Virus record (IMG/VR): IMGVR_UViG_3300028837_000819
Coordinates: 1 to 57,846 of that record
Strand: one strand, 5' to 3'
Origin: a virus
Lineage: Duplodnaviria > Caudoviricetes
DNA: 57,846 bases
Below, piece by piece: positions 5,829-28,877 of the stretch (the first letter of the stretch is position 1; every line of letters starts with the position of its first letter). The translations under genes and the position numbers were made by a program. Under the pieces are notes generated by a model. It ran no database searches and was not told where the DNA came from. It saw nothing but the letters and a program-made list of their open reading frames with translations.

Positions 5829-5837
5829 GGGCACGCG

Positions 5838-8780
5838 ATGGCAACGGGGAAGTACAAGTTCGCTGACCTGAAGGATGTCGAAGAGGCGATGAACGGCCTC
5901 GACTCCATCGTCTCAGGCGCGGGTGTGATACAGGGTGCGGTCAACACGTTCGCGGACCTGCCGAATCCCATTGGCCTCAAGGACGGAACTATCTACATCG
6001 TTCGGCTGGACACGCCGGGCCACGACAACGGCTTCTATGTGGTGCAGTCGGACACGTGGCAGTTCTTCGATGCGCTCAACTTCCAAGACTCCGACGAGGT
6101 CCCCAACAAGTCGATCATACCGGGTGCGAGCGTGACCGCTGCGCTCGATCACCTCGGCGGGTACTTCATGTCGGACTTCTCTACGCCACAGGCGGCCATT
6201 GACGCGGCCATCGTGTCGGGACAGAAGTTCCTCTTCGTCGATCAGCTATTCTCGCTCTCCGTCGCGCTGGACCTCAAGAGTGAGGCGGACCTCAGCCTCA
6301 TGGGGCTCGGGTCGGGGACGGGCTTCCTCGTTGCGAACGTGGCAGCCACAGGAGCCATCGAGAACGTCGGGGATCGTGCGAAGCTCAGTGACATCTACAT
6401 CGAGGTCCAGAACTGCACCACCACGGCCAAGATCATCGACGCGGACGCGGCTGCAGGCGTGACGCTGGACAACGTGCTCATCAGGATGAAGACCGGCACG
6501 CAGGCGGCCCGCGCCTTCTCGCTCTTCGACTGCGACGACTCCACCGTCAACCTCTGCCGGGTCATTGTCGAGGATGCTGGCACTGGCAAGCTCGATTACG
6601 GCATCTATGCTGAAGGCTGCGAGAACATCATCGTCCAGAGCAACCGCACGCTCAAGGGGACGGTCGGGATCAGGGTCGATGACAGCGAGCGGGCCTCGGT
6701 CGAGAACAACTACGTCCTGTATCCGTGGGGCAACGCGTACGAGATCGTTGACTTCAACCACGGGCAGGCCCTCAGCAACCACGCGTACTCGGGCAACACG
6801 GCGGGCACGTACGGCTTCTTCCTTCAGAACCTCGAAAGCCTCCAGTTTGGCAAGAATGACGTGCAGGATTGGGACGCCGGGGCCAACATGACCGGCGCGT
6901 ACTTTGACAACGTGGACAAGGGCGTCTTCGAGGGGAACCTCTTCCGGGACCTCTCGCTTGACGGGATGTACTTCACGGACAGCGCCAGTCTCACGTGCCG
7001 GAACAACTTCGTGCACGTGTGCGGGCGCGACGGCATTTACTTCAACACTAACCAGTACGCGAACATCTCGGGGAACTACATCTATTTCCCCGTGCGCGAC
7101 GGGTACGGCTTCACGTCCTGCGCTCAGACGATCCTCAATGACAACCACATCTTCGGACCGGGCGGCCGAAACGGCGTCCTGTGCTCGGCCGGGGCCATGT
7201 TCCAGATTGCCAACAACCACCTGTACAACGCCTTCGGGACCGGACCGGATATCGAGTGTGTCGATTGCACGACCGTCGTCATCGAGGGCAACATCTGTGG
7301 CGGGTCCAGTGTGCAGAAGGTCTACCTACATGGGGCCACCACGCGGGACATCCTCGTCGACGACAACCAGTGCACGTTCGTTCGATACGATGGGATCGTC
7401 GTTGAGGACTGCGAGAAGGTACAGGTCAAAGACAACACCATGCGCGTCGGGAGCGATGTTGACTTCGACGCCATCAAGGTGACCGAGGGCAATGACATCC
7501 ACGTCGAGGGCAACCAGATAACTCAGTGGGACGCTTCGACGGGCATCCGTGGCATCTCGTGGACCACCTCCGTGGCGGACAGCAGCAAGGGCACCATCTC
7601 TCGGAACAGGATCACGGGCCTCACGGGCGTTGGCATCTACCTCCACGGTGCACCCCCGGCCGGACCGAAGTATCACGAGCACGTCGACGTGGAGAACAAC
7701 AGGATCGTCAGTCCGGGGAGCCACGGCATCCACGCCGCGCACATCCGGTACTGCAACATCAACGGGAATAAGATCAGCAAGGGTCAGGGGCAGGATACCT
7801 ACGGCATCCTGATCGAGTCTGACGTGGGTCAGTCGAACAACCTGTGCTCCGTCTCTCGCAACAAGATCACGGAATGGAATGCGCAGACGGGGATGGGCTG
7901 CATCAAGATCGCCGGAAACAATAATACCGAGTTCGAGATCGACGAGAACAAGGCGTACCAGTGCACCGGCCACGCGATGGAGATCAAGTGCAGCGGGTTC
8001 AGCCTCATTGGCAACCGGGCCGAGGCAGCCTTCGGCGCGGCTCTACTTGCCAACGGGCTTGTCAACGGCAGCATCACTGGCGGGTCGTACGAGGGCGGTG
8101 ACGCCACGACCGGGGGTGCTATCGTCTTCGACGGTGGCGGATCAGTCACGCTCACTGGAGCCTTTATCAGTGGCGGTTCCTATCGCGCGGTGTGGGTGAA
8201 GGACTACTGTGAGAACATCAGCGTCACGGACAACCACATCAAGACCGGTGGGAACCTCGCGGCTGACCGCGCTGTCATCGACGTGGAGGGCGAGGTCGAG
8301 CGTATCCTCATTGGCGACAACGTCTTCGAGCACTCGAACCATCACCCGATCCGCGTCAAGACCGGAACCACTGGCGATCCCGACGCGGTGACGGTCAAGG
8401 GGAACATCTGCGTCGGCTGCTCTGTCGGCGGCATCAAGTGCCAGAACGTGGGCCATCTCAAGGTCGAGGGGAACACGCTCGGTGACAAGGCGTACAACGC
8501 CGGATACCCGGCCATCGACGTGGACAACTGCGATCAGGCGTCGCTCCAGCACAACACGATCTATGACTGGAACGCCGGGGCCGGAGATCACGGCATCTAC
8601 GTCCAGAACTCGACCAAGGTCCTGCAGGCGGACAACACGATCCAGAATGTGGGAGGTGACGCGGCGAAGTGGGAAGATACGGTCACGTACTCGATGAGTC
8701 GTGACAACATGATGATCGGCGAAACCGTCGATCTCGGTTCTGGCACCGGTAACGATGCGAACGGTGACCGGATCGTATAG
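5838..8780 (+). CDS. Long right-handed parallel beta-helix protein (pectate-lyase-like; putative virion depolymerase/adhesin)
   Basis: Many ~22-25-aa PbH1-type coils (GI.....N..I..N); short N-terminal GAVNTFADLP..G.IY.V adaptor module. Confidence 0.8.
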   Translation: MATGKYKFADLKDVEEAMNGLDSIVSGAGVIQGAVNTFADLPNPIGLKDGTIYIVRLDTPGHDNGFYVVQSDTWQFFDALNFQDSDEVPNKSIIPGASVTAALDHLGGYFMSDFSTPQAAIDAAIVSGQKFLFVDQLFSLSVALDLKSEADLSLMGLGSGTGFLVANVAATGAIENVGDRAKLSDIYIEVQNCTTTAKIIDADAAAGVTLDNVLIRMKTGTQAARAFSLFDCDDSTVNLCRVIVEDAGTGKLDYGIYAEGCENIIVQSNRTLKGTVGIRVDDSERASVENNYVLYPWGNAYEIVDFNHGQALSNHAYSGNTAGTYGFFLQNLESLQFGKNDVQDWDAGANMTGAYFDNVDKGVFEGNLFRDLSLDGMYFTDSASLTCRNNFVHVCGRDGIYFNTNQYANISGNYIYFPVRDGYGFTSCAQTILNDNHIFGPGGRNGVLCSAGAMFQIANNHLYNAFGTGPDIECVDCTTVVIEGNICGGSSVQKVYLHGATTRDILVDDNQCTFVRYDGIVVEDCEKVQVKDNTMRVGSDVDFDAIKVTEGNDIHVEGNQITQWDASTGIRGISWTTSVADSSKGTISRNRITGLTGVGIYLHGAPPAGPKYHEHVDVENNRIVSPGSHGIHAAHIRYCNINGNKISKGQGQDTYGILIESDVGQSNNLCSVSRNKITEWNAQTGMGCIKIAGNNNTEFEIDENKAYQCTGHAMEIKCSGFSLIGNRAEAAFGAALLANGLVNGSITGGSYEGGDATTGGAIVFDGGGSVTLTGAFISGGSYRAVWVKDYCENISVTDNHIKTGGNLAADRAVIDVEGEVERILIGDNVFEHSNHHPIRVKTGTTGDPDAVTVKGNICVGCSVGGIKCQNVGHLKVEGNTLGDKAYNAGYPAIDVDNCDQASLQHNTIYDWNAGAGDHGIYVQNSTKVLQADNTIQNVGGDAAKWEDTVTYSMSRDNMMIGETVDLGSGTGNDANGDRIV

Positions 8781-8808
8781 CCCCTTGCGAGCCCAAGGGA
8801 GGTCAGGC

Positions 8809-10086
8809 GTGGCGACGAAGGCGAAGACGAAGAAGAAGCCCACGAAGAAGAAGCGGGCCAAGGGGTCCAACGGCCATTACGCGCGCGCGAATGTCGTGAG
8901 GCTCAAGGTCGCGGACCTCGAAGACGCTCCCTACAACGCGAGGACGATCACGCAGAAAGCTCTCAAGGGACTCTTCAAGAGCCTCGAAGAGTTCGGCCTC
9001 GTGCATCTCCCCGTGGTCAACAAGCGCAAGAAGAAGTACCGGATCATCGGCGGCCACCAGCGGGTCCTTCTTCTCAGGCGAGAGGGGGTCGAGCATGTAT
9101 GGTGCATCGTGGTGGAGGTCCCCGACGACGTTGAGCGAAAGGCCAACTTCACGCTCAATAACCGAGCTATCCAAGGGGAATTCGTTCCCGAACTCACCCG
9201 AGACCTACTGGACCGGATTCGGGGTCTCGTCGATAACGCAGACGCGAAAGACTCGCCCTTCAAGCTCCTCAACTTCGACGAGCTAGTGAAGCGGGTCTCC
9301 CGGAACATGAACGTGCTCTCCGGCGAGAACGGACAGCCGATCATCCTGAACGAGGGCCGCGTCGACGAGGACGCCGAGCCGCAGATGACGAAGACCAAGG
9401 CCGACTCTCAGGTCGGGACGATCTACGAACTCGGGGATCACCGCATTCACTGTGGGGGTCTCAAGGGTGTCGGGAGTCTCAAGGCGTTCGGTGTCGCAGA
9501 CGACGTGGTGGACATGGCCTTCACCCGGATCGCTGATCCCAAGACGCTGAGCGAGGGGTACCTCGACTCGTATCTCGGGACGATACTGGAGGGCACGAGG
9601 GGGGCCGTTTACATCGTCACGACGACGCGGAACCTCGCGCAGATTCAGCAGCGCTTCGAGGCTCTCCACGGGCACTGGTCAACTACGCTCATGTGGGTCT
9701 ATCCCGAGGCGAGCCCGTCGGTCGACGAGCGGTACCGGGACGTGCTCATCCCCGTCATCTATGGCTGGCCGGAGGGGGCGGATCGCCAGTTCTATGGGGA
9801 GAAGCGGATCAGCAACGTCTTCACCCTGAAGCGGGCACCGAAGAACAAGCTGCCGGTGGAGATCGCCATCAAGGCGTACGCGCTGTCCTCGTGCGACGGG
9901 GACAACGTGCTCGATGTGGACGTGGGGGACGGCTCAAGTGTCATCGCCGCGAGCATGACCCCGCGTCATCTGATTGGCTACGTACGAACGGCCCACGCCT
10001 GTGACAAGGTGCGGAGGAGATGGGCCGAATTCATTCATGGGCCGAAGTGCAACTGGAAAGCGCTTACACCGAAGCGTTCCGGATGA
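8809..10086 (+). CDS. ParB/Srx-like N-terminal domain fused to a degenerate N4/N6 DNA methyltransferase
   Basis: LEDAPYNAR..IIGGHQR ParB motif; GTIYELGDHRIHCG linker; DPPY is replaced by TRIA and DPFxGSG by DVDVGDGSS. Confidence 0.75.
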   Translation: MATKAKTKKKPTKKKRAKGSNGHYARANVVRLKVADLEDAPYNARTITQKALKGLFKSLEEFGLVHLPVVNKRKKKYRIIGGHQRVLLLRREGVEHVWCIVVEVPDDVERKANFTLNNRAIQGEFVPELTRDLLDRIRGLVDNADAKDSPFKLLNFDELVKRVSRNMNVLSGENGQPIILNEGRVDEDAEPQMTKTKADSQVGTIYELGDHRIHCGGLKGVGSLKAFGVADDVVDMAFTRIADPKTLSEGYLDSYLGTILEGTRGAVYIVTTTRNLAQIQQRFEALHGHWSTTLMWVYPEASPSVDERYRDVLIPVIYGWPEGADRQFYGEKRISNVFTLKRAPKNKLPVEIAIKAYALSSCDGDNVLDVDVGDGSSVIAASMTPRHLIGYVRTAHACDKVRRRWAEFIHGPKCNWKALTPKRSG

Positions 10087-10106
10087 CCGGAGGTGGAGGG
10101 CGCTGT

Positions 10107-10319
10107 GTGGAAGAACGAGAGCCGACGCTGTTAGGAAAGATCGCGTGCTTCTTTGGGGTGCACCCGTGGCAGTACAACACCCCGTGGAAGGGCGAGTACA
10201 TGTGGCCTCACCGGAGCCGGTGGAGGTGGAAGAGGCGCTGCATTGTCTGCGGGGTCGAGGAGGTCTGGTATCCTCACCTTCAAGGGCAGTCGAGCGGCGG
10301 ATGGCACAGACAGAGGTGA
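10107..10319 (+). CDS. Small Zn-finger protein (DUF1660-like)
   Basis: C-FFG-V-H-PW ... RRC-IV-CG pattern; GGAGG upstream of GTG. Confidence 0.55.
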   Translation: MEEREPTLLGKIACFFGVHPWQYNTPWKGEYMWPHRSRWRWKRRCIVCGVEEVWYPHLQGQSSGGWHRQR

Positions 10320-10322
10320 TCT

Positions 10323-11555
10323 ATGCCGATTGAGATGACGAAGCCGACGATCATGCGGCTCAAGCTGAGCACGCTTGAGTTCTCGAACTACAACCCGAGG
10401 CAGATCAGCGAGACCGCGATGCAGGGTCTCCGCGAGGCGCTGGCCGAGTTGGGTCTCATGGACATGCCTCTCGTCAACGTCGCCGACGGGAAGAAGAGGA
10501 TCATCAGCGGCCACATGCGCGCGCGAGCGCTTATGGAGGAGGGGTACACGGAGGCGGACTGCCTCGTCGTGGAGTTCGACGACCTGAAGGAGCAGATGGC
10601 GAACATCACGATGAACAACCCGGCCGTTCAGGGGAAGTGGGACCTGAAGGACATCGTGCCGACGCTCGATCAGATCACGGCGGACCTACCGAAGCCGGAC
10701 CACATGCTGCTGGAGACCTTGCTCCGGGACATCAGGAAGCAGGTCTCGCGCAACCCGGACCTGAGACCGTCGGGCAAGAAGTTCGCGGGCGGCACGCCCA
10801 AGTCGAGCGCCGGAGTGATCTACGGCCTCGGCCCGCACCGGCTGTACTGCGGAGCCATGCAGGACAAGGACGCGTTCCCCTTCATCTTCGGGAAGAAGCG
10901 AGCGACGGCGTGCGTCACCGATCCTCCGTACAACGTCCAGTACGAGCAGGCGGGCAAGGACGGCGAGATCGAGAATGACAACATGAGCCCGGCTGAGTTC
11001 CGGTCCTTCATGGAGGACGTGGTGTCCGTGATCCGGGCGTACGTCTCCGGCGTCACCTACATGTTCATGTCGAGCAAGTACCTGCCCGTCGTGCAGGACG
11101 TGTGGGAGTATCACGACGGGATCGTGGATCGCTGGATGGCGTGGGTGAAGACGAACCCGAGCGTCAGCAGCTTCCGGACGGTGGACTTCCACAGCCAGTT
11201 CGAGTGGATCATGTTCGGGTACAAGGCCGGGGCGAGTGTGCCGGAGGTCGAGACGGCGAGGACGAACCTCCTCATGTTCCCGAAGCCAGCAGTCAACAAG
11301 CTCCACCCGACGCAGAAGCCGCTCGAAGTGGTCGCGCCTCTGGTCGAGGACGCCACCGACGAGGGCGAGATCGTCTTCGATCCCTTTGTCGGGAGTGGGA
11401 CTACGATCATCGTCTGCGAGGTCCTGAAGCGCGTGTGCTTCGCCTGTGAGCTTGATCCCCGGCACGTGGACACCGCTCGACGGCGTTGGGCCGAGAGCGT
11501 GCACGGCGAGAATTGTGATTGGGAAGACTTGACTAAGGCGGTTTCGGCTATATGA
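10323..11555 (+). CDS. ParB/Srx-domain DNA methyltransferase (N6-adenine/N4-cytosine, beta class)
   Basis: NYNPR..IISGHMR ParB motif; TDPPY catalytic motif; HPTQKP; FDPFVGSGTT SAM-binding motif. Confidence 0.9.
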   Translation: MPIEMTKPTIMRLKLSTLEFSNYNPRQISETAMQGLREALAELGLMDMPLVNVADGKKRIISGHMRARALMEEGYTEADCLVVEFDDLKEQMANITMNNPAVQGKWDLKDIVPTLDQITADLPKPDHMLLETLLRDIRKQVSRNPDLRPSGKKFAGGTPKSSAGVIYGLGPHRLYCGAMQDKDAFPFIFGKKRATACVTDPPYNVQYEQAGKDGEIENDNMSPAEFRSFMEDVVSVIRAYVSGVTYMFMSSKYLPVVQDVWEYHDGIVDRWMAWVKTNPSVSSFRTVDFHSQFEWIMFGYKAGASVPEVETARTNLLMFPKPAVNKLHPTQKPLEVVAPLVEDATDEGEIVFDPFVGSGTTIIVCEVLKRVCFACELDPRHVDTARRRWAESVHGENCDWEDLTKAVSAI

Positions 11556-11556
11556 T
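11529..11556 (+). promoter_or_regulatory. Sigma70-like promoter TTGACT-N16-TATGAT
   Basis: Near-consensus hexamers overlapping the MTase stop, upstream of the GAGGAG RBS of 11600. Confidence 0.6.
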
Positions 11557-11599
11557 GGCCGATGTCACACTGCTCTATTAAATAGAGGAGAAAGCGACG

Positions 11600-11941
11600 A
11601 TGGATGCACCGAAGTATCTGTACCATGCCACCTACCTTGCAAACTATGACGGGGACACCATTGACCTCAACGTGGACCTCGGCTTCAACATCAACGTGAC
11701 GATCCGCGTACGGCTCCTCGGTGTGGACACGCCCGAGCTTCGGGGTGTCGACGAGGCCGAGAAGACGCGCGGCCAGCGGGCGAAGGACTTCACCTGTCAG
11801 TTCCTCTCGGGCGAGGACGTGATCGTCAAGACCTACAAGGACAAGAAGGGGAAGTACGGCCGATGGCTCGCGGAGCTTTGGGTCGGGCAGAGGAGCTTGG
11901 GCGACGCGCTGCAGGAGGCGGGGCTCGCGGCTCCCATGTGA
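11600..11941 (+). CDS. Thermonuclease (SNase-like) family nuclease
   Basis: DGDT..DLGF..RVRLLGVDTPE..KGKYGRWLA motifs intact. Confidence 0.9.
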   Translation: MDAPKYLYHATYLANYDGDTIDLNVDLGFNINVTIRVRLLGVDTPELRGVDEAEKTRGQRAKDFTCQFLSGEDVIVKTYKDKKGKYGRWLAELWVGQRSLGDALQEAGLAAPM

Positions 11942-11963: not shown

Positions 11964-14900
11964 ATGCCCTTGACGTACAAGGTCCCTAAGAACGTCCGCG
12001 CAGCGGCCGAGAATGCCCTCAGAGCGCACGCAAAGCGTCCGGGCGGCTCGGAAGCCGTCTCGGGGGCCGGTATCGCGACAGCGCTCAAGGAAGGCACCGT
12101 GGGGCTCGATCTGGTGGCCTCTCTGCACCGGTTCTTCACGATCAACGAGCGCCTATACCGTGCAGCCATACGGACCCTCCAAGATGACCTCACCGCGCCC
12201 GTGATCCTGTCGTGGAGACTACATGGGGACACGGGCGGCAAGGTATGGGCTCGCCGGGTCTTCACGCAGGCGGTGAAGGAGGGACTCCTCGAAGAGGATC
12301 AGTACGCCGCCCTCTTCCGCCGCGAGCCCGAGCAGATTTACGACCTCTTCGCCGCCGACGCGTGGCGATGGGAGTACGGCCTCGATCCACGGAGCGCCGC
12401 TCGCTTCGTCGAGGAGTACGCTCACCAGACCGGCAACCTTCTGGAGATCAACCGGGCCTTCGGCGACGGAGCAAAGGCCGTCGGCAACGCCGTCTATCGC
12501 CGGTACCACACGCCCAACCCGTTCGAGGAAGTGTACAAGGCGATGGTCGTGGAGGACGTGGACTACAAGCTCGCGGCCGAGCTTGATCTCCATGACATGT
12601 GCCGGAGCGCGAACATCCCGCTGAGCGAATCGCTCTTCCCGCAGATCGCGAACAAGTCCGACCTCACCGTGGCGAAGACGATATGGGGCCAGTTCGTCGC
12701 GTACTTCATCCTTGCCGTCGAGGCTCCGGACCTTCTCAAGCCGGTGCACAAGGGCTCGAAGATTCCGCCGCTCCTGATGCAGACTCCGAAGAAGCACTTC
12801 GCGTACCCGGACCCGATCAACACCTACATCCGTTACTTCCATCCCGATGGCGCGAAATACGTGGACCCCAACAAGGACAAGAAGTTTGTGGGCCTTGAGG
12901 TCGAAGCCGAGAACCTCATGAAGCGCGCGTTCTATGGGAAGAAGATCACCCGAGTGCAGGCTCTCAAGTTCCTCGGCCGAGCCCGACGCTGGACCGCGAA
13001 GAACAAGATGGCCGGGAGCCTCTTCCACATCTTCAACGCTGACTGGAAGAAGGCCAACTGGCAGCACATCCTTGACAACATCCCGCTCGAAGCCGACGTC
13101 CAGCCTGCCTTCGCGGCGTTCGTCGCGGGCAACCCGATGCCTGCCGAGGGTGTGGACCTACAACAGACGCTCGCCAAGAAAGCCACGAAGGTGGGGGTCA
13201 TCAAGGCGCTGTCCATTCAGTATGGCGACATGCCGACGGCCATCGAGCCCATGAAGCTCCGTGACACGGACTCCGGCAAGTGGGCCAAGGGAGAGAAGAC
13301 TCCGCTCGGAGTTTACAGCGTTCTCCTGAGTGCGGGGACGGATCACAAGTTCATCATGCTCGGCGCATACAAGGTGCCAAGCCAGAACGAGCCGATCCTC
13401 GTGTATCACCCGGAGTTCGACGAGGCGAATCTCAAGCTCACAGGCGACGCCAAGCTCCTCGACGCGCTCAAGAAGAAGAGCGTCATCATCGTGCAGGGTC
13501 ACAAGGACATGCCGGGCACTATCTACGGAGCGCCCGAGAAGCCGAAGAAAGAGGATCAGGCACCGGGCGCGGCCGAAGACGAGGACGCGCTCCTCGCCTT
13601 CATCGCCAGCGAGCTTGAGTTGCCAGTCGACGAGGTGAAGGCGATCTCCCTCACGCTCACTGAGTCGTGGGCCACGTTCGGATACGAGTATCCGGAGTGG
13701 ATGTTCATCGAGACGACGGACCTTGATTACAAGAAGGAGGGCACGGAGTTCTCGCTGAAGCTCCTCGGCGCGTTCGAGACGGCCGTCCAGATGGTCATTG
13801 CCTACCGGGATGATGACGGCGATCTCGGGTGGACCGACGATGACGAGTTCTCGCAGGCGATCACGAAGCACTATGTCCGCCCGCAGGGGTGGGAGCCCAA
13901 CGTTCCCGAGGACCCGGCCTTCCCCGATTGGGTTCCCAAAGAGCTTGGCAAGATGTTCGGAGTCGGGGCGGCCAACGTCAGTCAGGTACCGCTCAGCAGT
14001 ACCAAGTTTGCCAAGGCGTGCAAGATAGAGAGCCTTGAGTGCAAGTCGTACTCGCAGTGGGTGTACTGCGGGCCGACCTACCAACTCATTGGTGCGGCGC
14101 AGATCGGCGGCGTCGTCCACATCGTCTTTCAGGACATCATTGACCCGAACGACCTCATAGGTCCGATGGACTCGATGGCGTCGCAGTCGGTGTACGACGG
14201 GACCGCGTACCCGTCGGACAAGAAGCAAGCGCTTCCCGATGACCTCCACAAGTTCACGGACGAAGAATACTCGGCGATCAAGAATCAGTACAACCTTGAG
14301 GAGCCGGACGTTCTCTCTGTCCCTCTCGAAACCACGGATAGCTACGACACCGCGAAGGAGAACGGGTGGGGCTTCCGTCGCGGGACTGTGTGGGGGGTGA
14401 AGACAGCGGGCGGCGCGTGGCTCTATTACAAGGTTTCCGGAGCCTTCAAGAAAGGCTTCGAGGTCATGTTCCTCCTGTACAAGGGTGAGGATCAGAACAG
14501 CACCACCGATATCGCGTTCTTCTACGATTCCGTCTTCAAGGGTGGCCTCAACAACGGTGACATCATCCCGGCTGCGCAGGTCCCCGTTACGTCCCCGCCC
14601 AAGTTCGTCGTCGGGGACGTGCTCGATTTCCCGTCGGCCCGGTGGGCGGTGTTGGGGTTCCAGTCCCAACAGTATCTCCTTCAGCCTCTCAACGTCAGCT
14701 ACGATATCAAGGCCACGACCACGGGCTTTCAGGACGTTGTGGAGGGGGCGGCCGAGAAGGTCGGCCACATCGACGAGCCGCTCGCTGGCGCGCTCCTCAC
14801 CGCGCACATCGTTCTCCCAAGCGGTTGGGAGCACATGCCGAAGGCCGAGTTCGTCGAGGAGACTGGACTCGCGCTCGGGACCGCCGTCAACATGGGCGGG

Positions 14901-17900
14901 AGCAATTATTGGATCAGCGGCGGCGTGAAGAACACGGCTGGCGAAACATACGTGCTCGGAACACGGCCCGCGACGTCAAAGAATTCCGGCTGGTCTGATA
15001 TCGCGTACATCGAGCCGCTCCTCTCGCCTGCTAGTGACTACATCACCGAGTACGAGTCCACGTACGAGCCCACCGATCCGAAGCCGGAGCCCGGTGCGGA
15101 GGACGCGCTCGACGCGGTGGACGACGAGGCTGGCAACGCTGCGATGAGCGGTACGAATCCTGCCTTCACCTTCCTCAAGAAGAAGGATTGGACTCCGGCG
15201 GTCAAGAGTGAGAGCCCTGAGTTCCAGTGGGACCTCGGAGCGAAGCTCCAATACGGTCCGGAGAAGACGCGGACGATCATCGGGTACGGCTTCGCCGACG
15301 AGGCTGCTATCTACGTCATGGTCACCGAGAAGGGCAACGTCAACTTCAAGTCTGTCAAGGTGGGGAATCAGCAGTATGGCCCCGTGATCGAGTACGTCCA
15401 GAACATCGTTGACAACCTTCACCCGAAGCCGAGTGACGCGGGGAAGCAGAAGTTCCCGAAGCTCAATTACGGGCTCTCGTCGCACGCCAAGAAGCTCGCG
15501 CAGAAGCACGATCTGATCTATATCTCGTCGCCTGCCAATGCTCCCTTCTACGTGGGCTCCAAGATTTACGATAGCGTCGAAGGTAAGAGCGGCTGGCTCG
15601 TCGCGTGGACTGGTGACCCCGAGGAGCACGAGTTCAACGGGATCATCATGTACAAGGACGGCACGTGGTCCGAGCAGTCCTTCAACGCGATCCTCAACAA
15701 CCTGAGCATCAAGTACGCGAACACCAACGTGATCGACGAGACTGAGGGTGACATCACCTTTGGCAAGGGTTCTGAGAACGTCTCCATGACGGTGAACTAC
15801 CCCGGAGGCTCGCTGCCGACCAAGCCGGTCGAGGGGTGGGATGACCCAACGCCGGTTCAGCAGCCCGCCTTCCCGGAGCTTCCTTCAGGCAAGCACATCT
15901 CGGCTGGCGTCGTTGCCGTCTTCCCGGCAACTTCGACGGGCGTCAACAGCGGACCCACCATCGCGGTGCTCCCGAAGGCGACGTTTGTCATGACGCATCC
16001 GATGAACGAGTTCGCCGGGTACTCGATCACGTTCCCGAAGGGCACCGTCGAGCCGGGCGAGTCCATCGAGAAGGCTGCCGTTCGAGAGTGCTTCGAGGAG
16101 ACGGGTCTCACCATGAAGCTCGTCGCGTTCCTCGGGGACTACAAGGGCCAGTCCTCGTTGACGCGGATGTTCATGGGGTACGTGACCGGCGGCGATCCGA
16201 AGGCGGCCGGGAAGGAAACCGACGCCGTCTCCCTGAAGCCATTCGACTTCGCTGCGCCGCCCTCGGAGCAGAAGTGGTGGAGTCAGCTTCAGGATCGTGA
16301 CAAGAAGATCGTGGACGATGCCATCGACTGGATGAACACCAACGGGCTCCCCAATGAGGTGAAGATCAGCGAGGCGGCAGAGGACAGCGCCGTTACCGGA
16401 CCACAGGACACGGAAGGCTCGAACGGACCGGATACCTACGACCCGAAGGCTGAGCACGAGTACAAGCAGGAGTTCCCCAAGCAACTCATCAGCACGGCGG
16501 ACTATAAGGTCACCGTCGATACGAAGAAGTGGTGCGGCTCCTTCTTCGGCACGGTGTATTACGAGCAGTGGTGGTACGGGAAGCAACTGGAATGGATCAA
16601 CTTGGGCTATCCGCCCGTCGGCGCTCTCATCAAAGCTCCGGATGCTCAGGTCCCGGTCTCGCGCGTGCGCGCGTACGTGGACACGAAGGAGAAGGATGAG
16701 GGGGGCGAATACTTCGGGACCTACATCGTCGTCGAGTACGAGGACAAGACGACTCATTGGGCGCTCCTCATCAACAGCGGTCAGGCTGGAGCAACGCCTT
16801 ACAAGCCCGAAGTCTTCCAGCCCGTCGTCTCGAAAACGTCTGTCAAGCCGACGGCGATCACGGCGGACACGACCAAGGACGATGTGTGGAAGACGCTCCT
16901 CTTCAAGGCCCCGTTCCCCGTCAGTCAGGAAATGCAGGACGCGCTCAAGAAGACGGCGGCGGCGATCCCCTCGATACCGGCCACCTTCTCGTGCGCGAAG
17001 AACATGACGAAGGGACCTCCCTACGGAGAGATCGTCGTCTATCCGGCGCTCGATTCGGACGTGCCGTACCTCGTGGCCGGGTACGTCGAGTGGAAAGACA
17101 CGGAGGGAAACGATTACAGCTTCGCGCTCCTTGTCGGCGGCGGCAAGGTACAGGTCATTCCGTCGCTCAACTTCATAACCGACGAGTGGTCCATAGACGC
17201 GAACGCGAAAGCGGCACAGAGCCCGGCCGATCCGTTCTTCACACACCCGGACCCCAACATCAACGCGGTCATTCAGCAAATCTATGCCAACGGCGGGGAC
17301 ACCAAGGCCGTCGGCACGACGGTCGGTCAGTTCAAGGATCAGTGGATGAAGGAGGCGAAGCTCCCTGCCTACGCCGTCGTCACCAAGCCTCTCCTTCAGG
17401 ACGTGGCGTCGCTCTTCGTTCCCGGTGCGGCCACGCAGGCACAGTACGACGCCATTGTCGGTTGCCTCAAAGCCCGGATGAAGGCCACGCACAAGAACAA
17501 GGGCAAGAAGGGCACGAGCGCCGGGACCGCTGTCGCCACGCCGCAGATCACGGCCGCCGCTCCGGTTCTTCCCGAGGTCAACGTTCCGAAGAAGGTCCTG
17601 AAAGCGAAGGGACTCAACGTCGAGTCCGCCGTCTATCAGAACTACGTCAATACCCCGCAGCCGATGCTCTTCAGCGATCTCGGTCAGACCGTTGGTGGTG
17701 GCTCGAAGCCGAACAAGCTCCTTGCCGGTCCCGGCGGGACGAAGTGGTTCTTCAAGATGGGTCCGGGGAAGGAGACCTTCCGGCCGTACGTGGACCGTGC
17801 GGCGTATCTGATCTCCGACCTCGTGAAGGATAACAACATCCCCGTCGGCGTCATGGAGTTCGAGGGCGGCGTCGGGTCCTACCAGCCGTACGCCGAGGAC

Positions 17901-18968
17901 GCGACGAATCCGCCGAGCGATCCCACCACGCTGTCGCCGGAGAACATGGCAGAGGTCCTCGCTCAGCACATGGTCGATATGTTTATGGGGGACCACGACG
18001 GCCACGTCGGCAACTGGCTGCGGATCGGCACACAGCTTCGCGCCGTTGACCGGGGGCAGGCGTTCAAGTTCCTCTTCCAGAACAAGAATGATAGCTACGA
18101 TCCCACGTGGCACGCCAAGGGGAACTTCGGTGAGGGGTACGCCAAGAAGCTCCTCATCGAGTGGGGCAACAACAACGTCGATCTTCCCAAGGAGTCTCTG
18201 CAGGGCGCGCGCGACGCCATCGCCAAGGTGCAGGCCATCGTGGACCAGCAGCTTGAGGCGATCCTCACACCGGTCTTCGACGCTCGTGACACGTCACCAG
18301 CTGAGCGGAAGAAGATTCTGAAGAAGCTGTACACGAGGAGGGATAACTACCTCAAGGACTGGACGGCCGTCATGAAGGGCTTGAAGAAGGGCTTCAAGTG
18401 GCCGTCGGTCGGTGTCACGATCCCGAAGATTACCCCGCTCAAGTCCTCTCCGAAGACGCAGGAGTTCAAGGCGCGCGAGGAGAAGACGATCAAGGAGGCC
18501 GTCGCGGCGGGCTGGCAGGGCAAGGCTCTCCAGATCGACAAGGATGCCATCGAGAATCAGGAGGTCATGGTTCGGCGGGTGACCTACGAAGAGAAGCCGG
18601 GCATGAAGATACCCGCGACGCTGATCCAGTTCCGTGTTGCTCGCGAAGCCGGACTGAAGCTCGTGCAGACGCTCGCCCCGAAGGCGAAGGTCACCATCGA
18701 GGAGGGCGGTACGGCATTCGGTCCGCAGCGCCTCAAGGCCGACGTGGTGAAGAATTATTACGAGGCGATCCTTGCCGCGATCAAGAGCGTCAATCATCAC
18801 CTCTCCAAGGAGAAGAACCTAGAGATCAACATGGATCAACATGCAGACGGTTGGCAATGCGCTCAACCTATCGCCGGAATTGGAGAAGATTTTCAGCCAG
18901 ACCAAGGACCCGGCTGGCACCTACAAAGCAACTGGCGAACCGAACGACGCCGTGAACGCGATGGCTGA
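11964..18968 (+). CDS. Giant polyvalent protein, N-terminal part: phage head-associated helical domain, ~10 SH3-like barrels, NUDIX hydrolase, PI3K/HipA-like kinase; frameshifted at 18824-18843
   Basis: Nudix box GTVEPGESIEKAAVRECFEETGL (~16041-16109); kinase-like GGGSK..WFFK..GDHDGHVGN..VDRG (~17694-18065). Confidence 0.8.
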   Translation: MPLTYKVPKNVRAAAENALRAHAKRPGGSEAVSGAGIATALKEGTVGLDLVASLHRFFTINERLYRAAIRTLQDDLTAPVILSWRLHGDTGGKVWARRVFTQAVKEGLLEEDQYAALFRREPEQIYDLFAADAWRWEYGLDPRSAARFVEEYAHQTGNLLEINRAFGDGAKAVGNAVYRRYHTPNPFEEVYKAMVVEDVDYKLAAELDLHDMCRSANIPLSESLFPQIANKSDLTVAKTIWGQFVAYFILAVEAPDLLKPVHKGSKIPPLLMQTPKKHFAYPDPINTYIRYFHPDGAKYVDPNKDKKFVGLEVEAENLMKRAFYGKKITRVQALKFLGRARRWTAKNKMAGSLFHIFNADWKKANWQHILDNIPLEADVQPAFAAFVAGNPMPAEGVDLQQTLAKKATKVGVIKALSIQYGDMPTAIEPMKLRDTDSGKWAKGEKTPLGVYSVLLSAGTDHKFIMLGAYKVPSQNEPILVYHPEFDEANLKLTGDAKLLDALKKKSVIIVQGHKDMPGTIYGAPEKPKKEDQAPGAAEDEDALLAFIASELELPVDEVKAISLTLTESWATFGYEYPEWMFIETTDLDYKKEGTEFSLKLLGAFETAVQMVIAYRDDDGDLGWTDDDEFSQAITKHYVRPQGWEPNVPEDPAFPDWVPKELGKMFGVGAANVSQVPLSSTKFAKACKIESLECKSYSQWVYCGPTYQLIGAAQIGGVVHIVFQDIIDPNDLIGPMDSMASQSVYDGTAYPSDKKQALPDDLHKFTDEEYSAIKNQYNLEEPDVLSVPLETTDSYDTAKENGWGFRRGTVWGVKTAGGAWLYYKVSGAFKKGFEVMFLLYKGEDQNSTTDIAFFYDSVFKGGLNNGDIIPAAQVPVTSPPKFVVGDVLDFPSARWAVLGFQSQQYLLQPLNVSYDIKATTTGFQDVVEGAAEKVGHIDEPLAGALLTAHIVLPSGWEHMPKAEFVEETGLALGTAVNMGGSNYWISGGVKNTAGETYVLGTRPATSKNSGWSDIAYIEPLLSPASDYITEYESTYEPTDPKPEPGAEDALDAVDDEAGNAAMSGTNPAFTFLKKKDWTPAVKSESPEFQWDLGAKLQYGPEKTRTIIGYGFADEAAIYVMVTEKGNVNFKSVKVGNQQYGPVIEYVQNIVDNLHPKPSDAGKQKFPKLNYGLSSHAKKLAQKHDLIYISSPANAPFYVGSKIYDSVEGKSGWLVAWTGDPEEHEFNGIIMYKDGTWSEQSFNAILNNLSIKYANTNVIDETEGDITFGKGSENVSMTVNYPGGSLPTKPVEGWDDPTPVQQPAFPELPSGKHISAGVVAVFPATSTGVNSGPTIAVLPKATFVMTHPMNEFAGYSITFPKGTVEPGESIEKAAVRECFEETGLTMKLVAFLGDYKGQSSLTRMFMGYVTGGDPKAAGKETDAVSLKPFDFAAPPSEQKWWSQLQDRDKKIVDDAIDWMNTNGLPNEVKISEAAEDSAVTGPQDTEGSNGPDTYDPKAEHEYKQEFPKQLISTADYKVTVDTKKWCGSFFGTVYYEQWWYGKQLEWINLGYPPVGALIKAPDAQVPVSRVRAYVDTKEKDEGGEYFGTYIVVEYEDKTTHWALLINSGQAGATPYKPEVFQPVVSKTSVKPTAITADTTKDDVWKTLLFKAPFPVSQEMQDALKKTAAAIPSIPATFSCAKNMTKGPPYGEIVVYPALDSDVPYLVAGYVEWKDTEGNDYSFALLVGGGKVQVIPSLNFITDEWSIDANAKAAQSPADPFFTHPDPNINAVIQQIYANGGDTKAVGTTVGQFKDQWMKEAKLPAYAVVTKPLLQDVASLFVPGAATQAQYDAIVGCLKARMKATHKNKGKKGTSAGTAVATPQITAAAPVLPEVNVPKKVLKAKGLNVESAVYQNYVNTPQPMLFSDLGQTVGGGSKPNKLLAGPGGTKWFFKMGPGKETFRPYVDRAAYLISDLVKDNNIPVGVMEFEGGVGSYQPYAEDATNPPSDPTTLSPENMAEVLAQHMVDMFMGDHDGHVGNWLRIGTQLRAVDRGQAFKFLFQNKNDSYDPTWHAKGNFGEGYAKKLLIEWGNNNVDLPKESLQGARDAIAKVQAIVDQQLEAILTPVFDARDTSPAERKKILKKLYTRRDNYLKDWTAVMKGLKKGFKWPSVGVTIPKITPLKSSPKTQEFKAREEKTIKEAVAAGWQGKALQIDKDAIENQEVMVRRVTYEEKPGMKIPATLIQFRVAREAGLKLVQTLAPKAKVTIEEGGTAFGPQRLKADVVKNYYEAILAAIKSVNHHLSKEKNLEINMDQHADGWQCAQPIAGIGEDFQPDQGPGWHLQSNWRTERRRERDG
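18824..18843 (+). repeat. 10-bp tandem duplication GATCAACATG x2 causing a frameshift
   Basis: gatcaacatg at 18824-18833 and 18834-18843. Confidence 0.9.
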
Positions 18969-20292
18969 CCAGTACATCCAGTACCTCGCGGCGATCAAGG
19001 TCTTCGTGGACAGCAAGGAGGAGTATCTCGGAAAGCACTCGCCTCACTTCGCGCCGTTCCTGTGGCAGGAGCCCACCGAGGAAGAGGAGGAGCCCACCGA
19101 GATTCCGCAGATCGAGATCGAGCTTCGCAAGCAGGGAGCCTCGTTGCCGCAGTCGACGGCCGAGCCGGGTGAGGTTGTCATCACCGGTTTCAACAAGCCT
19201 GTCTACCGTACGTCGGAGCAGCCTCAGTTCGTCATCAAGGACCCGATCACGCAGGCGACGATCTTTTACAACCCGCCGGGTGGCGTGCAGGGTCTCAAGT
19301 CCGGCGTCGAGGGCCACAAGTCCATCGCGTGGGCGGTCATGAAGGGTGAGCCGTCCACTGGCGTCGTGGCGCACCTCATGAAGCTCTTCGAGTCGGCGGC
19401 CGGTCTGAAGATGCGGCCTGCCACGAAGAAGGACGACGAGGTTCTCTACTGGTCAAAGCAGGCGGCTCTCCTCCAGAGCGGCGGCAAGGTTCACCCGAAA
19501 GCAGACGGCACCGCCGAAGTTGATCCGGCATACGCGCAGGCGATGCAGCAGTACCGGATGGGCGATGACGATGCGGCGCTGAAGGGGCTGAAGGATTTCA
19601 CGGCGAAGCAGCTTGGCGTCCCCGTCGGCCAGCTTACGAAGCAGCCGGGGTACAGCTTGAAGGGTGACTACACACGGGGGGCGGGCTGGCGCAGGCACGA
19701 GCGAATCGGATGGACCGCCTCGAAGCTCCAGAGCTTCATGGGGAAGGGCGCGACTGTCGCCCACACGGTAACCGGTGGCTCGGGCAACATGCTCAACTTC
19801 TTCCAGATGGCGATGAAGAACGGCTCGCTTCTGTCGAACAATCAGAAGCCCTTCTATGGAGTCAGTGTCAACGGATTCTCGACGGGTTCGGACTTCGACG
19901 CGGGTGGCACGCAGGGTCTCTTCTGCGTCTTCCGGAAGTTCGGGTCGGCCGGTGCGAACGTGCTGTACTTCGATATCGCTGTCTGTCTCAGAACGGATGT
20001 CTACGTCGTGGGTTCTGGTGACGCTTTCGGGAACGTCCACACCGAGCGGTACACCACACCGGAGCAGTGGAAGGGGAAGGTCGGTACGGGCCAGATCGGT
20101 GCAAGCTCGCACTTCCAGATCAACGTCCGTCATGACATTGACATTCAGAAATATCTTCTCTCGGCGGTGTGCTCGTCGGCCAGTTCTCGCGATCAGATCA
20201 GGAAGATTTGCAAAGACATGGGCTGGACGAAGTTCGCGCGCGGGCGCAGTATCGAACAGGCCATTGTCACCTCGAAGGAGGCAAAGTTCTGA
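18841..20292 (+). CDS. C-terminal part of the giant protein; possible ADP-ribosyltransferase-like domain
   Basis: Removing one duplicated copy fuses the ORFs (..LEINM-QTVGN..) into 2772 aa. VAHTVT..GSLLS..S..D..GG..LFC pattern. Confidence 0.65.
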   Translation: MQTVGNALNLSPELEKIFSQTKDPAGTYKATGEPNDAVNAMADQYIQYLAAIKVFVDSKEEYLGKHSPHFAPFLWQEPTEEEEEPTEIPQIEIELRKQGASLPQSTAEPGEVVITGFNKPVYRTSEQPQFVIKDPITQATIFYNPPGGVQGLKSGVEGHKSIAWAVMKGEPSTGVVAHLMKLFESAAGLKMRPATKKDDEVLYWSKQAALLQSGGKVHPKADGTAEVDPAYAQAMQQYRMGDDDAALKGLKDFTAKQLGVPVGQLTKQPGYSLKGDYTRGAGWRRHERIGWTASKLQSFMGKGATVAHTVTGGSGNMLNFFQMAMKNGSLLSNNQKPFYGVSVNGFSTGSDFDAGGTQGLFCVFRKFGSAGANVLYFDIAVCLRTDVYVVGSGDAFGNVHTERYTTPEQWKGKVGTGQIGASSHFQINVRHDIDIQKYLLSAVCSSASSRDQIRKICKDMGWTKFARGRSIEQAIVTSKEAKF

Positions 20293-21011
20293 TGCCGTTG
20301 ATGGACGCCATCATGCAGGGGATGGAGTTCCGGTGCGCCTACTACGGAACGCCGCAACCCATTGACCTCGTGGCGCGCGCGCCGGGCGAGACGCTTATCG
20401 CCTTCGCAGGGTGGTGGAAAGCACAATGGGACATCGGCAATGGTCTTGAGATCGTCAAGGGGAACCTCGTCGAGGCCGAGCAGGGCATCCGCTGGAAGTT
20501 CGACGAAGGTCCCGATGACACCCTCATCGCGTCGCCGAGTGATGGTGACATGCAGGCGCGGATCGACCGAACGCGCACGCTGCAGGACATCGAGCGGCCG
20601 ATTTACCTCAACGCGCTCGCGATTCTCAAAGAACAGAACCCGGACTTCGATTTCGACCCGTGGATCGAGACCTACCTAGAGCGGCCTCTATACGACCCTG
20701 TGGCGGCATATCGAAAAAAGCACTTAGGACTACGAAAAACCTCTGGACTTTTGCTTCTCAACAGGGATAATGTGGGCGTCGATGTTCTTCTCGTGGATGA
20801 GCACGGCAACGCTGCAGTTGCAGCAGCGTCGGAGTGGCTGACCGTGTTCGCCAACAGGTGGACCGAAATGGAAGACAGGCCCGATCCTCAGAGCTTCGTC
20901 GAGTGGGTCGCGACGCAGCGTCCCTACGGTCCTCATGGTCTTAGCGAACCCTTTGTGTTGGAAGCGGAAGGTCACTTGGAGGACCTCGCCGCGAGAAGAC
21001 TGAGTGAGTGA
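20292..21011 (+). CDS. Hypothetical protein translationally coupled to the giant gene
   Basis: TGATG overlap at 20290-20294; MPLMDAIMQG... Confidence 0.65.
   Translation: MPLMDAIMQGMEFRCAYYGTPQPIDLVARAPGETLIAFAGWWKAQWDIGNGLEIVKGNLVEAEQGIRWKFDEGPDDTLIASPSDGDMQARIDRTRTLQDIERPIYLNALAILKEQNPDFDFDPWIETYLERPLYDPVAAYRKKHLGLRKTSGLLLLNRDNVGVDVLLVDEHGNAAVAAASEWLTVFANRWTEMEDRPDPQSFVEWVATQRPYGPHGLSEPFVLEAEGHLEDLAARRLSE
20744..20771 (+). promoter_or_regulatory. Intragenic sigma70-like promoter TGGACT-N16-GATAAT with upstream A-tracts
   Basis: Local AT-rich patch with gaaaaaag and gaaaaac tracts ~21 bp apart, ~280 bp upstream of the head gene block. Confidence 0.45.
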
Positions 21012-21053
21012 TGGTCGTCTAGCTGGCGGCCACTTGGAAAGGAGCATTCAGTT

Positions 21054-21419
21054 ATGCCAAGGCGTCAGGCAGCAGCGGTGGATGTGTACGATTTCGGTGC
21101 CCCGGCTGCGGTGGCAACGGTCCTCGACTTCAAGGTCTTGCAGGGCGGCAAGCTCGACCTTTGCTTCGAGAACCTCGAAGCGCCGGACCTCACGGTCTCG
21201 GTCGAGGTCTCCGAGGACGGGACCACCTACGCAGCGACCACGGCGGCGGACAACCTCGCGGTTGTCACCGACGAGGTCGTGGCGGGCGGCTGCAACAAGG
21301 ACTTCACGGTCCTTGCGAGGCAGGACTTGGACAACTACGTCCGCGTCCGCGCCTTGGGCGGCACGCGTGCCAACATGCAGGTGCGCCCCGACGGCGTCCT
21401 CCAGATCAGGCAGATATAA
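21054..21419 (+). CDS. Small all-beta putative virion (decoration) protein, distant paralogue of the next two genes
   Basis: AAGGAG RBS; shared pattern EN...DL...E.S.D..G...V..GG...F.....(Y/W)(V/L)R..A. Confidence 0.55.
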   Translation: MPRRQAAAVDVYDFGAPAAVATVLDFKVLQGGKLDLCFENLEAPDLTVSVEVSEDGTTYAATTAADNLAVVTDEVVAGGCNKDFTVLARQDLDNYVRVRALGGTRANMQVRPDGVLQIRQI

Positions 21420-21422
21420 GCA

Positions 21423-21437
21423 ACAACAATTTGTTGG
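21423..21437. promoter_or_regulatory. Palindromic operator-like site, copy 2 (ACAACAATTTGTTGG)
   Basis: Intergenic, 3 bp after the stop at 21419. Confidence 0.75.
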
Positions 21438-21498
21438 TTGGATTGTGGCTCTGCCAGTCTGAGCCGCTGCCGGTCCACAGGAAGAGGAGGTCGCCACC

Positions 21499-23160: not shown

Positions 23161-23565
23161 GTGGCGAAGAAGGATGGAAAGCTGAGGTCCTCGCGGTCGT
23201 CGAGACCGAAGGCACCGCTTCCAGAGTCGCTGCCCGGCGACTTCTTCCTCATGGAGTACGACCGATCCCGTGGGCGCTACATCCTCCACCTTGATAACGA
23301 CGACGAGGAGAGCTTCGATCTCGGCTCGGACGTACAGGAGATGATGCGGCAGTTCGAGCGTTGGGGCCGGTACTCGATAGGGTGCGAGGCCATCGACCGC
23401 GCGCGGGAGTTCGGACTTGCTCAGGCGATTCCCGGAGAGACCGCGCGCGACGACCGAGTAATCGCCCTGCACGACCGGCCCGGCAAAGGCCGTGAGTTGA
23501 TGTTCAGGGACGGCAAGGAGAAGAGACATGGGGACCTCCCAAGGCTCACCAGAGCTTCTATGTGA
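23161..23565 (+). CDS. Hypothetical protein
   Basis: GGGAG RBS before GTG 23161; fills the gap between neighbours. Confidence 0.6.
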   Translation: MAKKDGKLRSSRSSRPKAPLPESLPGDFFLMEYDRSRGRYILHLDNDDEESFDLGSDVQEMMRQFERWGRYSIGCEAIDRAREFGLAQAIPGETARDDRVIALHDRPGKGRELMFRDGKEKRHGDLPRLTRASM

Positions 23566-23584
23566 GGGCGCTCTCGGCGCTTTC

Positions 23585-28490: not shown

Positions 28491-28877
28491 ATGGCAAAGA
28501 ACGTGGTACTGCTGGTCATGGCCCGCGAGGACCTACCGGCCAACCCGGAGACCGGGAGGCCCAACAGGTGGGGCGAGGTCGTCGGACAGTTCCCCGTGGA
28601 TCACAACTTCGGTCGGTTCGAGCAGCCCTCGGCCGGGAAGTTCGTCCACGTGCGGGTCGATGACTTGGACGACGACGCCGACCTCATGGAGCTTTATGAC
28701 ACGGGCGAGCAGACGCTCGGGCAGCCGGACCCCGAGACGGGCATCCCGACGGTTATAAAGGTCTATGCGAAGCGCTGGTTCGTCCCGGCTGAGATCATCG
28801 ACGAGATCAGGGCCGCCAACGGCGCGCGGCGCACGCTCACTCTCGAAGAGTTCGAGGATAGGGAGCCCGCTGAGTAA
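28491..28877 (+). CDS. Hypothetical acidic protein
   Basis: AGGAG RBS; coupled (TAATG) to the next gene. Confidence 0.65.
   Translation: MAKNVVLLVMAREDLPANPETGRPNRWGEVVGQFPVDHNFGRFEQPSAGKFVHVRVDDLDDDADLMELYDTGEQTLGQPDPETGIPTVIKVYAKRWFVPAEIIDEIRAANGARRTLTLEEFEDREPAE

Follow-up and report, generated by a model that had tools for sequence, protein, structure and literature searches.

Phage polyvalent proteins, in which several effector domains share one polypeptide, and effector domains fused to phage head proteins are the described systems closest to the gene analyzed here. Passages of Iyer et al. 2017 (PMC5512222) report polyvalent proteins with HYD2-clade ADP-ribosyltransferase (ART) domains and with kinase domains of a truncated Ser/Thr/Tyr type. 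According to passages of PMC9503650, MuF, portal or protease proteins often carry fused ART and Nudix domains, which are probably packaged, especially in myoviruses; the view taken in parts of PMC5512222 and PMC9503650 is that ARTs and Nudix domains joined to head proteins are packaged and then injected. We analyzed a 57,846-base viral record (IMG/VR record IMGVR_UViG_3300028837_000819; Duplodnaviria, Caudoviricetes), referred to in its full length as the window, with an estimated completeness of 41%, an even G + C content near 0.61 and all examined genes on the + strand. The gene at 11964–20292 probably encodes one polyvalent protein of 2772 amino acids (aa), hereafter the giant protein, which would be packaged in the head and ejected as a multi-enzyme effector; the phage is an uncultivated myovirus, its head of the T4 type.

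The giant protein resembles the polyvalent proteins described in parts of PMC5512222 in that several effector domains (Nudix, kinase and ART-fold) lie in one chain and one frame, in its linkage to head genes and in the presence of ART and kinase classes, and genes for Zeta-toxin-like, ParB-methylase and SNase proteins are located just upstream of it. A preliminary description, made from the letters of the window, had already recognized a multi-domain phage polyvalent protein. Those described proteins carry Ser/Thr/Tyr kinases and HYD2 ARTs, whereas the giant protein has a HipA/CtkA-like kinase and a DarT-like fold, and its N-terminus is not MuF. T4 Alt and internal head proteins (parts of PMC5512222 and PMC9503650) are likewise enzymes that are packaged in the head, processed by the protease and injected, and their phage builds a head of the gp21/gp23 type; however, Alt has an ordinary size and a single domain, an R-S-E ART, whereas the giant protein is multi-domain and its packaging is predicted.

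The extent of the gene was established from the following two features.

11964..20292, + strand: whole gene, encoding the 2772-aa polyvalent protein after removal of 10 extra bases.
18824..18843, + strand: perfect, frame-shifting 10-bp tandem duplication, GATCAACATG x2 (copies 18824–18833 and 18834–18843), missing from independent assemblies.

As given, 11964–20292 comprises two open reading frames (ORFs) in different frames, ORF1 (P0001; 11964–18968, 2334 aa) and ORF2 (P0002; 18841–20292, 483 aa). The preliminary description had proposed a single protein of about 2,770 aa; the length agrees with that obtained with one repeat copy, whereas a single ORF is not present in the window. The frame is split because of the tandem duplication. 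A single copy gives a continuous frame, ...KNLEINMQTVGNALNL..., and this junction matches that of P0003, an 86%-identical relative. The duplication was checked in contigs from four (X1, X4, X6 and X7) of 20 public sequencing runs, X1–X20; small-share runs do not inform on habitat. Contigs crossing 18824–18843 lacked the 10 bases in all four runs. Those of X1, X4 and X6 (one contig each) were otherwise identical to the window, and that of X7 represented a relative of approximately 92% identity. All 12 related viral loci have one open frame across the kinase and the C-terminal domain, with a length of 2459–3304 aa in the nine that hold the whole frame, and the database relatives P0003–P0012 are also fused (P0004–P0012, 2243–2337 aa).

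Since the assemblies of all four runs lack the extra bases and all 12 related loci have one frame, the biological gene, judged from these sequences, is one 2772-aa protein, and the duplication arose in assembly or represents a rare variant. That the split is genuine, with a 2334-aa protein that bears the N-terminal, Nudix and kinase domains and a DarT-like protein of 443–483 aa made separately, is extremely improbable. The window as given does read in two frames, ORF2 begins with ATG, and a 443-aa product from this record is present in the protein collection (P0015); against this stand the four runs without the 10 bases, three of them otherwise identical to the window, the fused frames in the 12 loci and in all 25 giant-protein rows of the alignment described below, and the final 44 residues of ORF1, which are out-of-frame sequence. 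Contigs lose rare variants, so a minority form with the duplication is possible, which counts against a strictly single form.

The Nudix and kinase domains and the regions that flank the kinase were located as follows.

15879..16343, + strand: Nudix hydrolase domain (Pfam NUDIX E 1e-12; PDB Nudix matches; Nudix box).
16041–16109, + strand: Nudix box GTVEPGESIEKAAVRECFEETGL, residues 1360–1382, a perfect match and the sole one in the protein.
16881..17498, + strand: conserved alpha/beta domain preceding the kinase, residues 1640–~1845 (AlphaFold2 model; conserved with P0004).
17628..18410, + strand: HipA/CtkA/PI3K-like kinase with K1931, D2005, D2010-H-D2012, N2017 and D2029 (Foldseek and invariant residues).
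18411..19677, + strand: conserved domains that link the kinase to the DarT-like core (helical, beta-hairpin (AGWQGK...IENQEVMV), beta-sandwich and helical; models).

The Nudix box consensus is G-x5-E-x7-R-E-U-x-E-E-x-G-U. The Nudix assignment is solid, with a Pfam NUDIX match at residues 1350–1424 (48.6 bits versus a cut-off of 21.1) and box Glu residues kept in 45–49 of 51 rows of relatives; the canonical box noted in the preliminary description was thereby recovered. PDB matches of the domain are scattered over MutT-like, diadenosine tetraphosphate (Ap4A), RppH and ADP-ribose enzymes. For the substrate class, the MutT-like, Ap4A, RppH and NudE families provide the best matches in PDB and NCBIfam, all of them far below equivalog cut-offs.

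The kinase region (residues 1640–2290) was modelled with AlphaFold from a 41-row alignment, giving a mean predicted local distance difference test (pLDDT) score of 82.6 with values above 90 across most of the kinase core. In the preceding alpha/beta domain (model residues 1–205), block pLDDT was mostly 83–97; two blocks scored 72 and 79. Foldseek returned 11 PDB matches at E <= 0.001, headed by Helicobacter pylori CtkA (3akl, E 4.7e-5), PI3K-gamma (1.3e-4) and Shewanella HipA (4pu4, 9.1e-4), with probabilities of 0.95–1.00 each. The candidate catalytic residues K1931, D2005, D2012, N2017 and D2029 are invariant among 51 relatives (28–43% identity), and K1931, D2012-G-H-V-G-N2017 and D2029, which correspond to the catalytic Lys, the D-x-H-x-x-N loop and the metal-binding Asp of this bilobal kinase fold, are also invariant among 41 aligned relatives. 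Both the kinase-like motifs of the preliminary description and its PI3K/HipA-like assignment were thus recovered, and the domain-wise modelling and Foldseek comparison that it had suggested matched the kinase to HipA, CtkA and PI3K and the C-terminal domain to DarT. The linker domains are kept in giants and in MuF-type relatives.

Sequence profiles tell partly against this assignment: the kinase segment of the window has no Pfam match at E <= 10 beyond a chance-level DUF, and HipA_C on P0013, the only row for which a score is shown, reaches 17.9 bits, below the cut-off of 30.5. Among relatives, HipA_C was found on 9 of 61 at E <= 0.1 (best E 5.9e-6). On the strength of the model, the kinase call is solid. 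The giant protein shares with HipA/CtkA/PI3K-PI4K kinases the fold, the D-x-H-x-x-N and D-x-G motifs and the Lys. It differs from HipA in that the kinase is embedded in a 2772-aa phage protein, with Pfam HipA_C matches in relatives only, and in that its neighbours are phage head and effector genes rather than a HipB-type context, although no dedicated search for HipB was made.

The C-terminal domain was the weakest call of the preliminary description, which had compared an H..GSLLS..S..D..GG pattern with DarT/PARP-like ART folds.

19678..20280, + strand: DarT-like ART-fold core (AlphaFold2 pLDDT 90.4; Foldseek DarT; residue table).
19762, 19915 and 20116, + strand: triad positions H308, G359 and Q426, respectively (ORF2 numbering), in place of H-Y-E.

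The model of this domain (P0002, from a 61-row alignment) had a pLDDT of 90.4. In Foldseek against the PDB, ranks 1 and 2 were both Thermus DarT (7omy and 7omx; probabilities 0.99 and 0.95, E 1e-2 and 1.6e-2, target-normalised template modelling (TM) scores 0.51 and 0.48), and the first non-DarT match, at rank 3, had a probability of 0.03. A BFVD search with the same model gave uncharacterised giant-virus proteins (best E 6.2e-4). Language-model neighbours of the domain, which serve as leads only, include DarT/PARP (0.88), OspC (0.88), DarT (0.85) and Arr (0.84) clusters. In a 99-row alignment the elements of the described pattern, H308, S347, D351 and G355-G356, are conserved.

Several results weigh against a DarT-like reading of the domain. 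The model has no PDB fold match at E <= 0.001, PDB profile and sequence searches with the domain gave nothing credible, and a six-frame search of the window with Pfam DarT (PF14487) gave no match at E <= 10. An hhalign comparison with 23 DarT sequences yielded only a short alignment (P 0.011, probability 4%); this non-significant alignment sets the family Glu column on DarT QAE. A DarG-type Macro partner was sought and not found, Macro PF01661 being present in none of five records, with a positive control in 8 of 14 genomes; NADAR was not searched for. Finally, the classical triad Glu and the stacking Tyr are replaced in the giant clade. With these points taken into account, the model makes a DarT-like ART fold likely for the C-terminal domain.

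Triad residues, compared in the 99-row alignment with its 25 giant rows, cleanly separate two clades.

Non-giant rows (44 rows: 18 short and 26 mid-size, MuF-type where full length): 308 H, 359 Y, 426 E.
Giant rows, including the window: 308 H, 359 G/N/S in most rows, 426 Q in all 25.

Both clades have R288, S347, D351, G355-G356, F361, R384, D386, D394 and R403 in common, and the giant clade has an extra conserved R430-H431-x-x-D434. Because this clade has Gly/Gln in place of the triad Tyr/Glu, ADP-ribosyl transfer by it is doubtful, and the 'writing' of ADP-ribose by an ART, as proposed in the preliminary description, is not favoured by a window that carries G359 and Q426. The strictly kept replacement residues would point to a changed function rather than decay.

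An active DarT-like transferase on nucleic acid or protein despite H-G-Q, with another acidic residue such as D434 in the catalytic role, is possible, although we consider it somewhat doubtful. The top fold match is DarT, the histidine and S347, D351, F361, R384, D386, D394 and R403 are kept in both clades, the giants acquired the conserved R-H-x-x-D element, and the strict conservation of Q426 would suggest function over decay; set against these are the replaced catalytic Glu and nicotinamide-stacking Tyr, the lack of a Macro-type reversal partner in the five records and the absence of a match to the Pfam DarT model. DarT itself is a single-stranded DNA ADP-ribosyltransferase toxin (part of PMC11543638). 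It is the sole credible PDB fold match, with the His on strand 1 and the sister-clade Glu aligned with QAE. The giant protein differs from it in the missing Pfam match, the Gly/Gln replacements and the absence of a Macro partner from the records searched, and, whereas DarT is a standalone toxin, its domain is fused to a kinase.

Within the head-morphogenesis module, the position of the gene is fixed. The features around it in the window are as follows.

3549–11941, + strand: upstream run of effector-type genes, separate genes with domains typical of polyvalent proteins.
20292..21011, + strand: gene d1, ~239 aa, whose ATG overlaps the stop codon of the giant gene.
23528–25138, + strand: S77 prohead protease, in the head module downstream of the giant gene.
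25165–26655, + strand: Gp23-type major capsid protein, in the head module downstream of the giant gene.

Downstream, the order is d1, a head-decoration-like gene, protease, Gp23-type capsid and adaptor, and protease and capsid genes lie downstream of the giant gene in 13 of 13 related loci, in line with the link to head proteins drawn in the preliminary description. By tblastn, d1 directly follows the giant gene in 12 of the 13; its product had no match in Pfam, PHROG or NCBIfam and could be a partner, chaperone or prohead core protein. The ORF at 21004–21462 has an Arg/Ser/Thr-rich low-complexity product and looks like an off-frame artefact, not a gene. The upstream run encodes a Zeta-toxin/AAA_33-like kinase (759 aa), a 980-aa beta-helix protein, two fusions of ParB-N with N6/N4 DNA methylase and one SNase-like nuclease. 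Zeta-like matches were found upstream in four related loci and ParB-methylase in two, several loci ending before that region. Farther downstream, at 28877–37893, two adjacent large ORFs (1607 and 1397 aa) with essentially no PHROG match are located between the head and tail-sheath genes.

The same enzymes also occur on other capsid-targeting proteins. The kinase module is encoded by 258 viral contigs, and the C-terminal domain, nearly always C-terminal, is found in 129 protein clusters at 50% identity. N-termini were typed in the 80 viral loci kept, using a MuF-type profile from 32 mid-size relatives: 67 of these kinase-bearing frames have a MuF-type N-terminus and 13 are giants. The DarT-like domain is present in 66 of 66 frames with a complete 3' end. 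Pfam Phage_Mu_F was found on 11 of 61 relatives, and a single-protein scan placed MuF-type relatives in five metagenome-assembled genome contigs. Judged by domain composition, other phages and proviruses carry the supermodule of kinase and DarT-like domain on minor-capsid N-termini of the MuF type. No match was obtained among 50,697 phage records, either for the gene by DNA megablast or for ORF2 by tblastn.

MuF polymorphic toxins of temperate phages are treated by Jamet et al. 2017 (PMC5576092), whose main text lacks the word 'kinase'. The mid-size relatives (1000–1800 aa) share the MuF N-terminus with these toxins and end in the same kinase plus DarT-like module as the giant protein, whereas in the giant protein the MuF domain is missing, a Nudix domain is added and the chain has roughly twice the length. 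A more distant Mycobacterium prophage protein annotated as a 'minor capsid and ADP-ribosyltransferase fusion' (BK061312.1 gp54; L003 4783–8295) combines VG15, an unannotated HipA-like kinase (tblastn E 2e-6) and an R-S-E ART and is located between portal and scaffold genes. It shares with the giant protein the kinase, a C-terminal ART and a comparable position (portal-scaffold), and differs in its exoenzyme-type ART (PF03496) and VG15 N-terminus. Because this R-S-E ART is unrelated, two different ART types pair with the same kinase. In titles and abstracts on HipA with MuF, or on DarT-like with phage or virion, the module was not described; supplementary tables may list the domain.

It is conceivable, if fairly unlikely, that the HipA-like kinase and the DarT-like domain form an undescribed obligate two-enzyme unit on capsid-targeting N-termini, with the ART site of the giants rebuilt for non-classical chemistry. 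The basis for such a unit is the co-occurrence of both domains in every complete viral frame (66/66).

The remaining parts of the giant protein lie before the Nudix domain.

11964..13523, + strand: conserved N-terminal domain, residues 1–~520, confined to the giant family.
12621..12629, + strand: L220-S221-E222, candidate prohead-protease cleavage site, the sole conserved [L/I]-x-E.
13251..15053, + strand: variable region with repeated small domains, residues ~430–1030, weakly conserved among relatives.

Forty homologues of the N-terminal domain were found, all of 2185–3035 aa, and 36 of them carry NUDIX. Residues such as P8, G34, R56, F57, W84 and W95 are conserved in at least 90% of 51 relatives. 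The N-terminal motif likened earlier to a domain of phage head proteins is therefore conserved, although the comparison to a head-protein family did not hold. Segment scans of the domain gave no Pfam or PHROG match, and a MuF identity was rejected (hhalign against the MuF-type region of 32 relatives, probability 0.1), results that speak against a recognizable head-protein N-terminus. Across the giant protein, scans of six or seven segments with Pfam and PHROG found nothing besides Nudix, without a Phage_Mu_F match, NCBIfam found only Nudix, and PDB sequence and profile searches gave Nudix matches only. An atlas search with the N-terminus yielded best scores of 0.83 and, for DUF6321, 0.79, which is chance level. 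A T4-type portal was also rejected as its identity, PF07230 having no match in the window and occurring elsewhere in the records of three relatives (G001, G002 and G004). Two relatives have near-complete records of 143 and 150 kb. In near-complete relatives (G001, G002, G004; L089–L092) the portal gene lies far from the protease/capsid module, an unusual order for a T4-type head.

[LI]xE is a cleavage motif of prohead proteases. It is present at L220-S-E222 in 46 of 51 rows, and other conserved Glu columns have it in two rows at most. Since the module includes an S77 prohead protease gene 3 kb downstream, we take L220-S-E222 as a candidate for cleavage; of the LEE, VED and LSES sites listed in the preliminary description, this one is conserved and the others are not. 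In the variable region, residues 430–529 matched 565–664 with an hhalign probability of 93.7, and the region is missing from the BLASTP match to P0004. Small repeated domains were seen within residues ~430–680 (window 13251–14000).

These observations bear on whether the giant protein reaches the virion. It may act in the cytoplasm as a host-takeover enzyme without ever being packaged, its gene merely co-transcribed with late head genes, as the N-terminus without a detectable head-protein domain would allow; we regard this as unlikely given the fixed position within the head module in all 13 loci and the 67 of 80 viral frames in which the same enzyme module is fused to a MuF-type minor-capsid N-terminus, and late-made enzymes would be of little use unless taken to the next cell. 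It could instead be mainly a structural internal-head or ejection protein whose enzyme-like domains are relics. Its very large size, its standing as a core gene of the lineage, its conserved N-terminus and the lost ART triad fit such a role, which is nevertheless quite improbable with a Nudix box and kinase residues that are invariant or nearly so over 51 relatives at 28–43% identity.

By analogy, the giant protein most likely acts as a polyvalent effector that is packaged in the head and ejected, although its packaging, cleavage and ejection and all of its activities are what we infer from comparison, and this tempers the conclusion. The protein would be built into the prohead, trimmed by the S77 prohead protease after L220-S-E222, and ejected together with the phage DNA. 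In the host, the kinase would phosphorylate one or more host proteins, and the Nudix domain would hydrolyse a nucleoside-diphosphate-X compound. The anti-defence scheme of the preliminary description, in which an injected protein could write (kinase, ART) and erase (Nudix) nucleotide-based signals or modifications, is likewise a conjecture. Because H-G-Q and R-H-x-x-D replace the sister H-Y-E, the DarT-like domain is proposed to bind a ligand related to nicotinamide adenine dinucleotide (NAD+) or ADP-ribose, or to perform non-canonical chemistry, and it is probably not a classical Glu-dependent ADP-ribosyl transferase.

Multi-enzyme proteins that are packaged in the head and injected are regarded as the probable first move of a phage against host defences, and few have been tested. 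The present family is common in metagenomes, and its C-terminal domain has no Pfam model. If the ART site is rebuilt, H...Q...R-H-x-x-D may, together with the Nudix domain on its own polypeptide, process an NAD+-derived or ADP-ribose-linked molecule, the protein being delivered from the phage head as infection begins. The H-Y-E and H-G-Q clades offer a natural contrast for the function of the ART fold in each, and this contrast could show whether the kinase, Nudix and ART-fold domains share one pathway, for example NAD+/ADP-ribose-based immunity.

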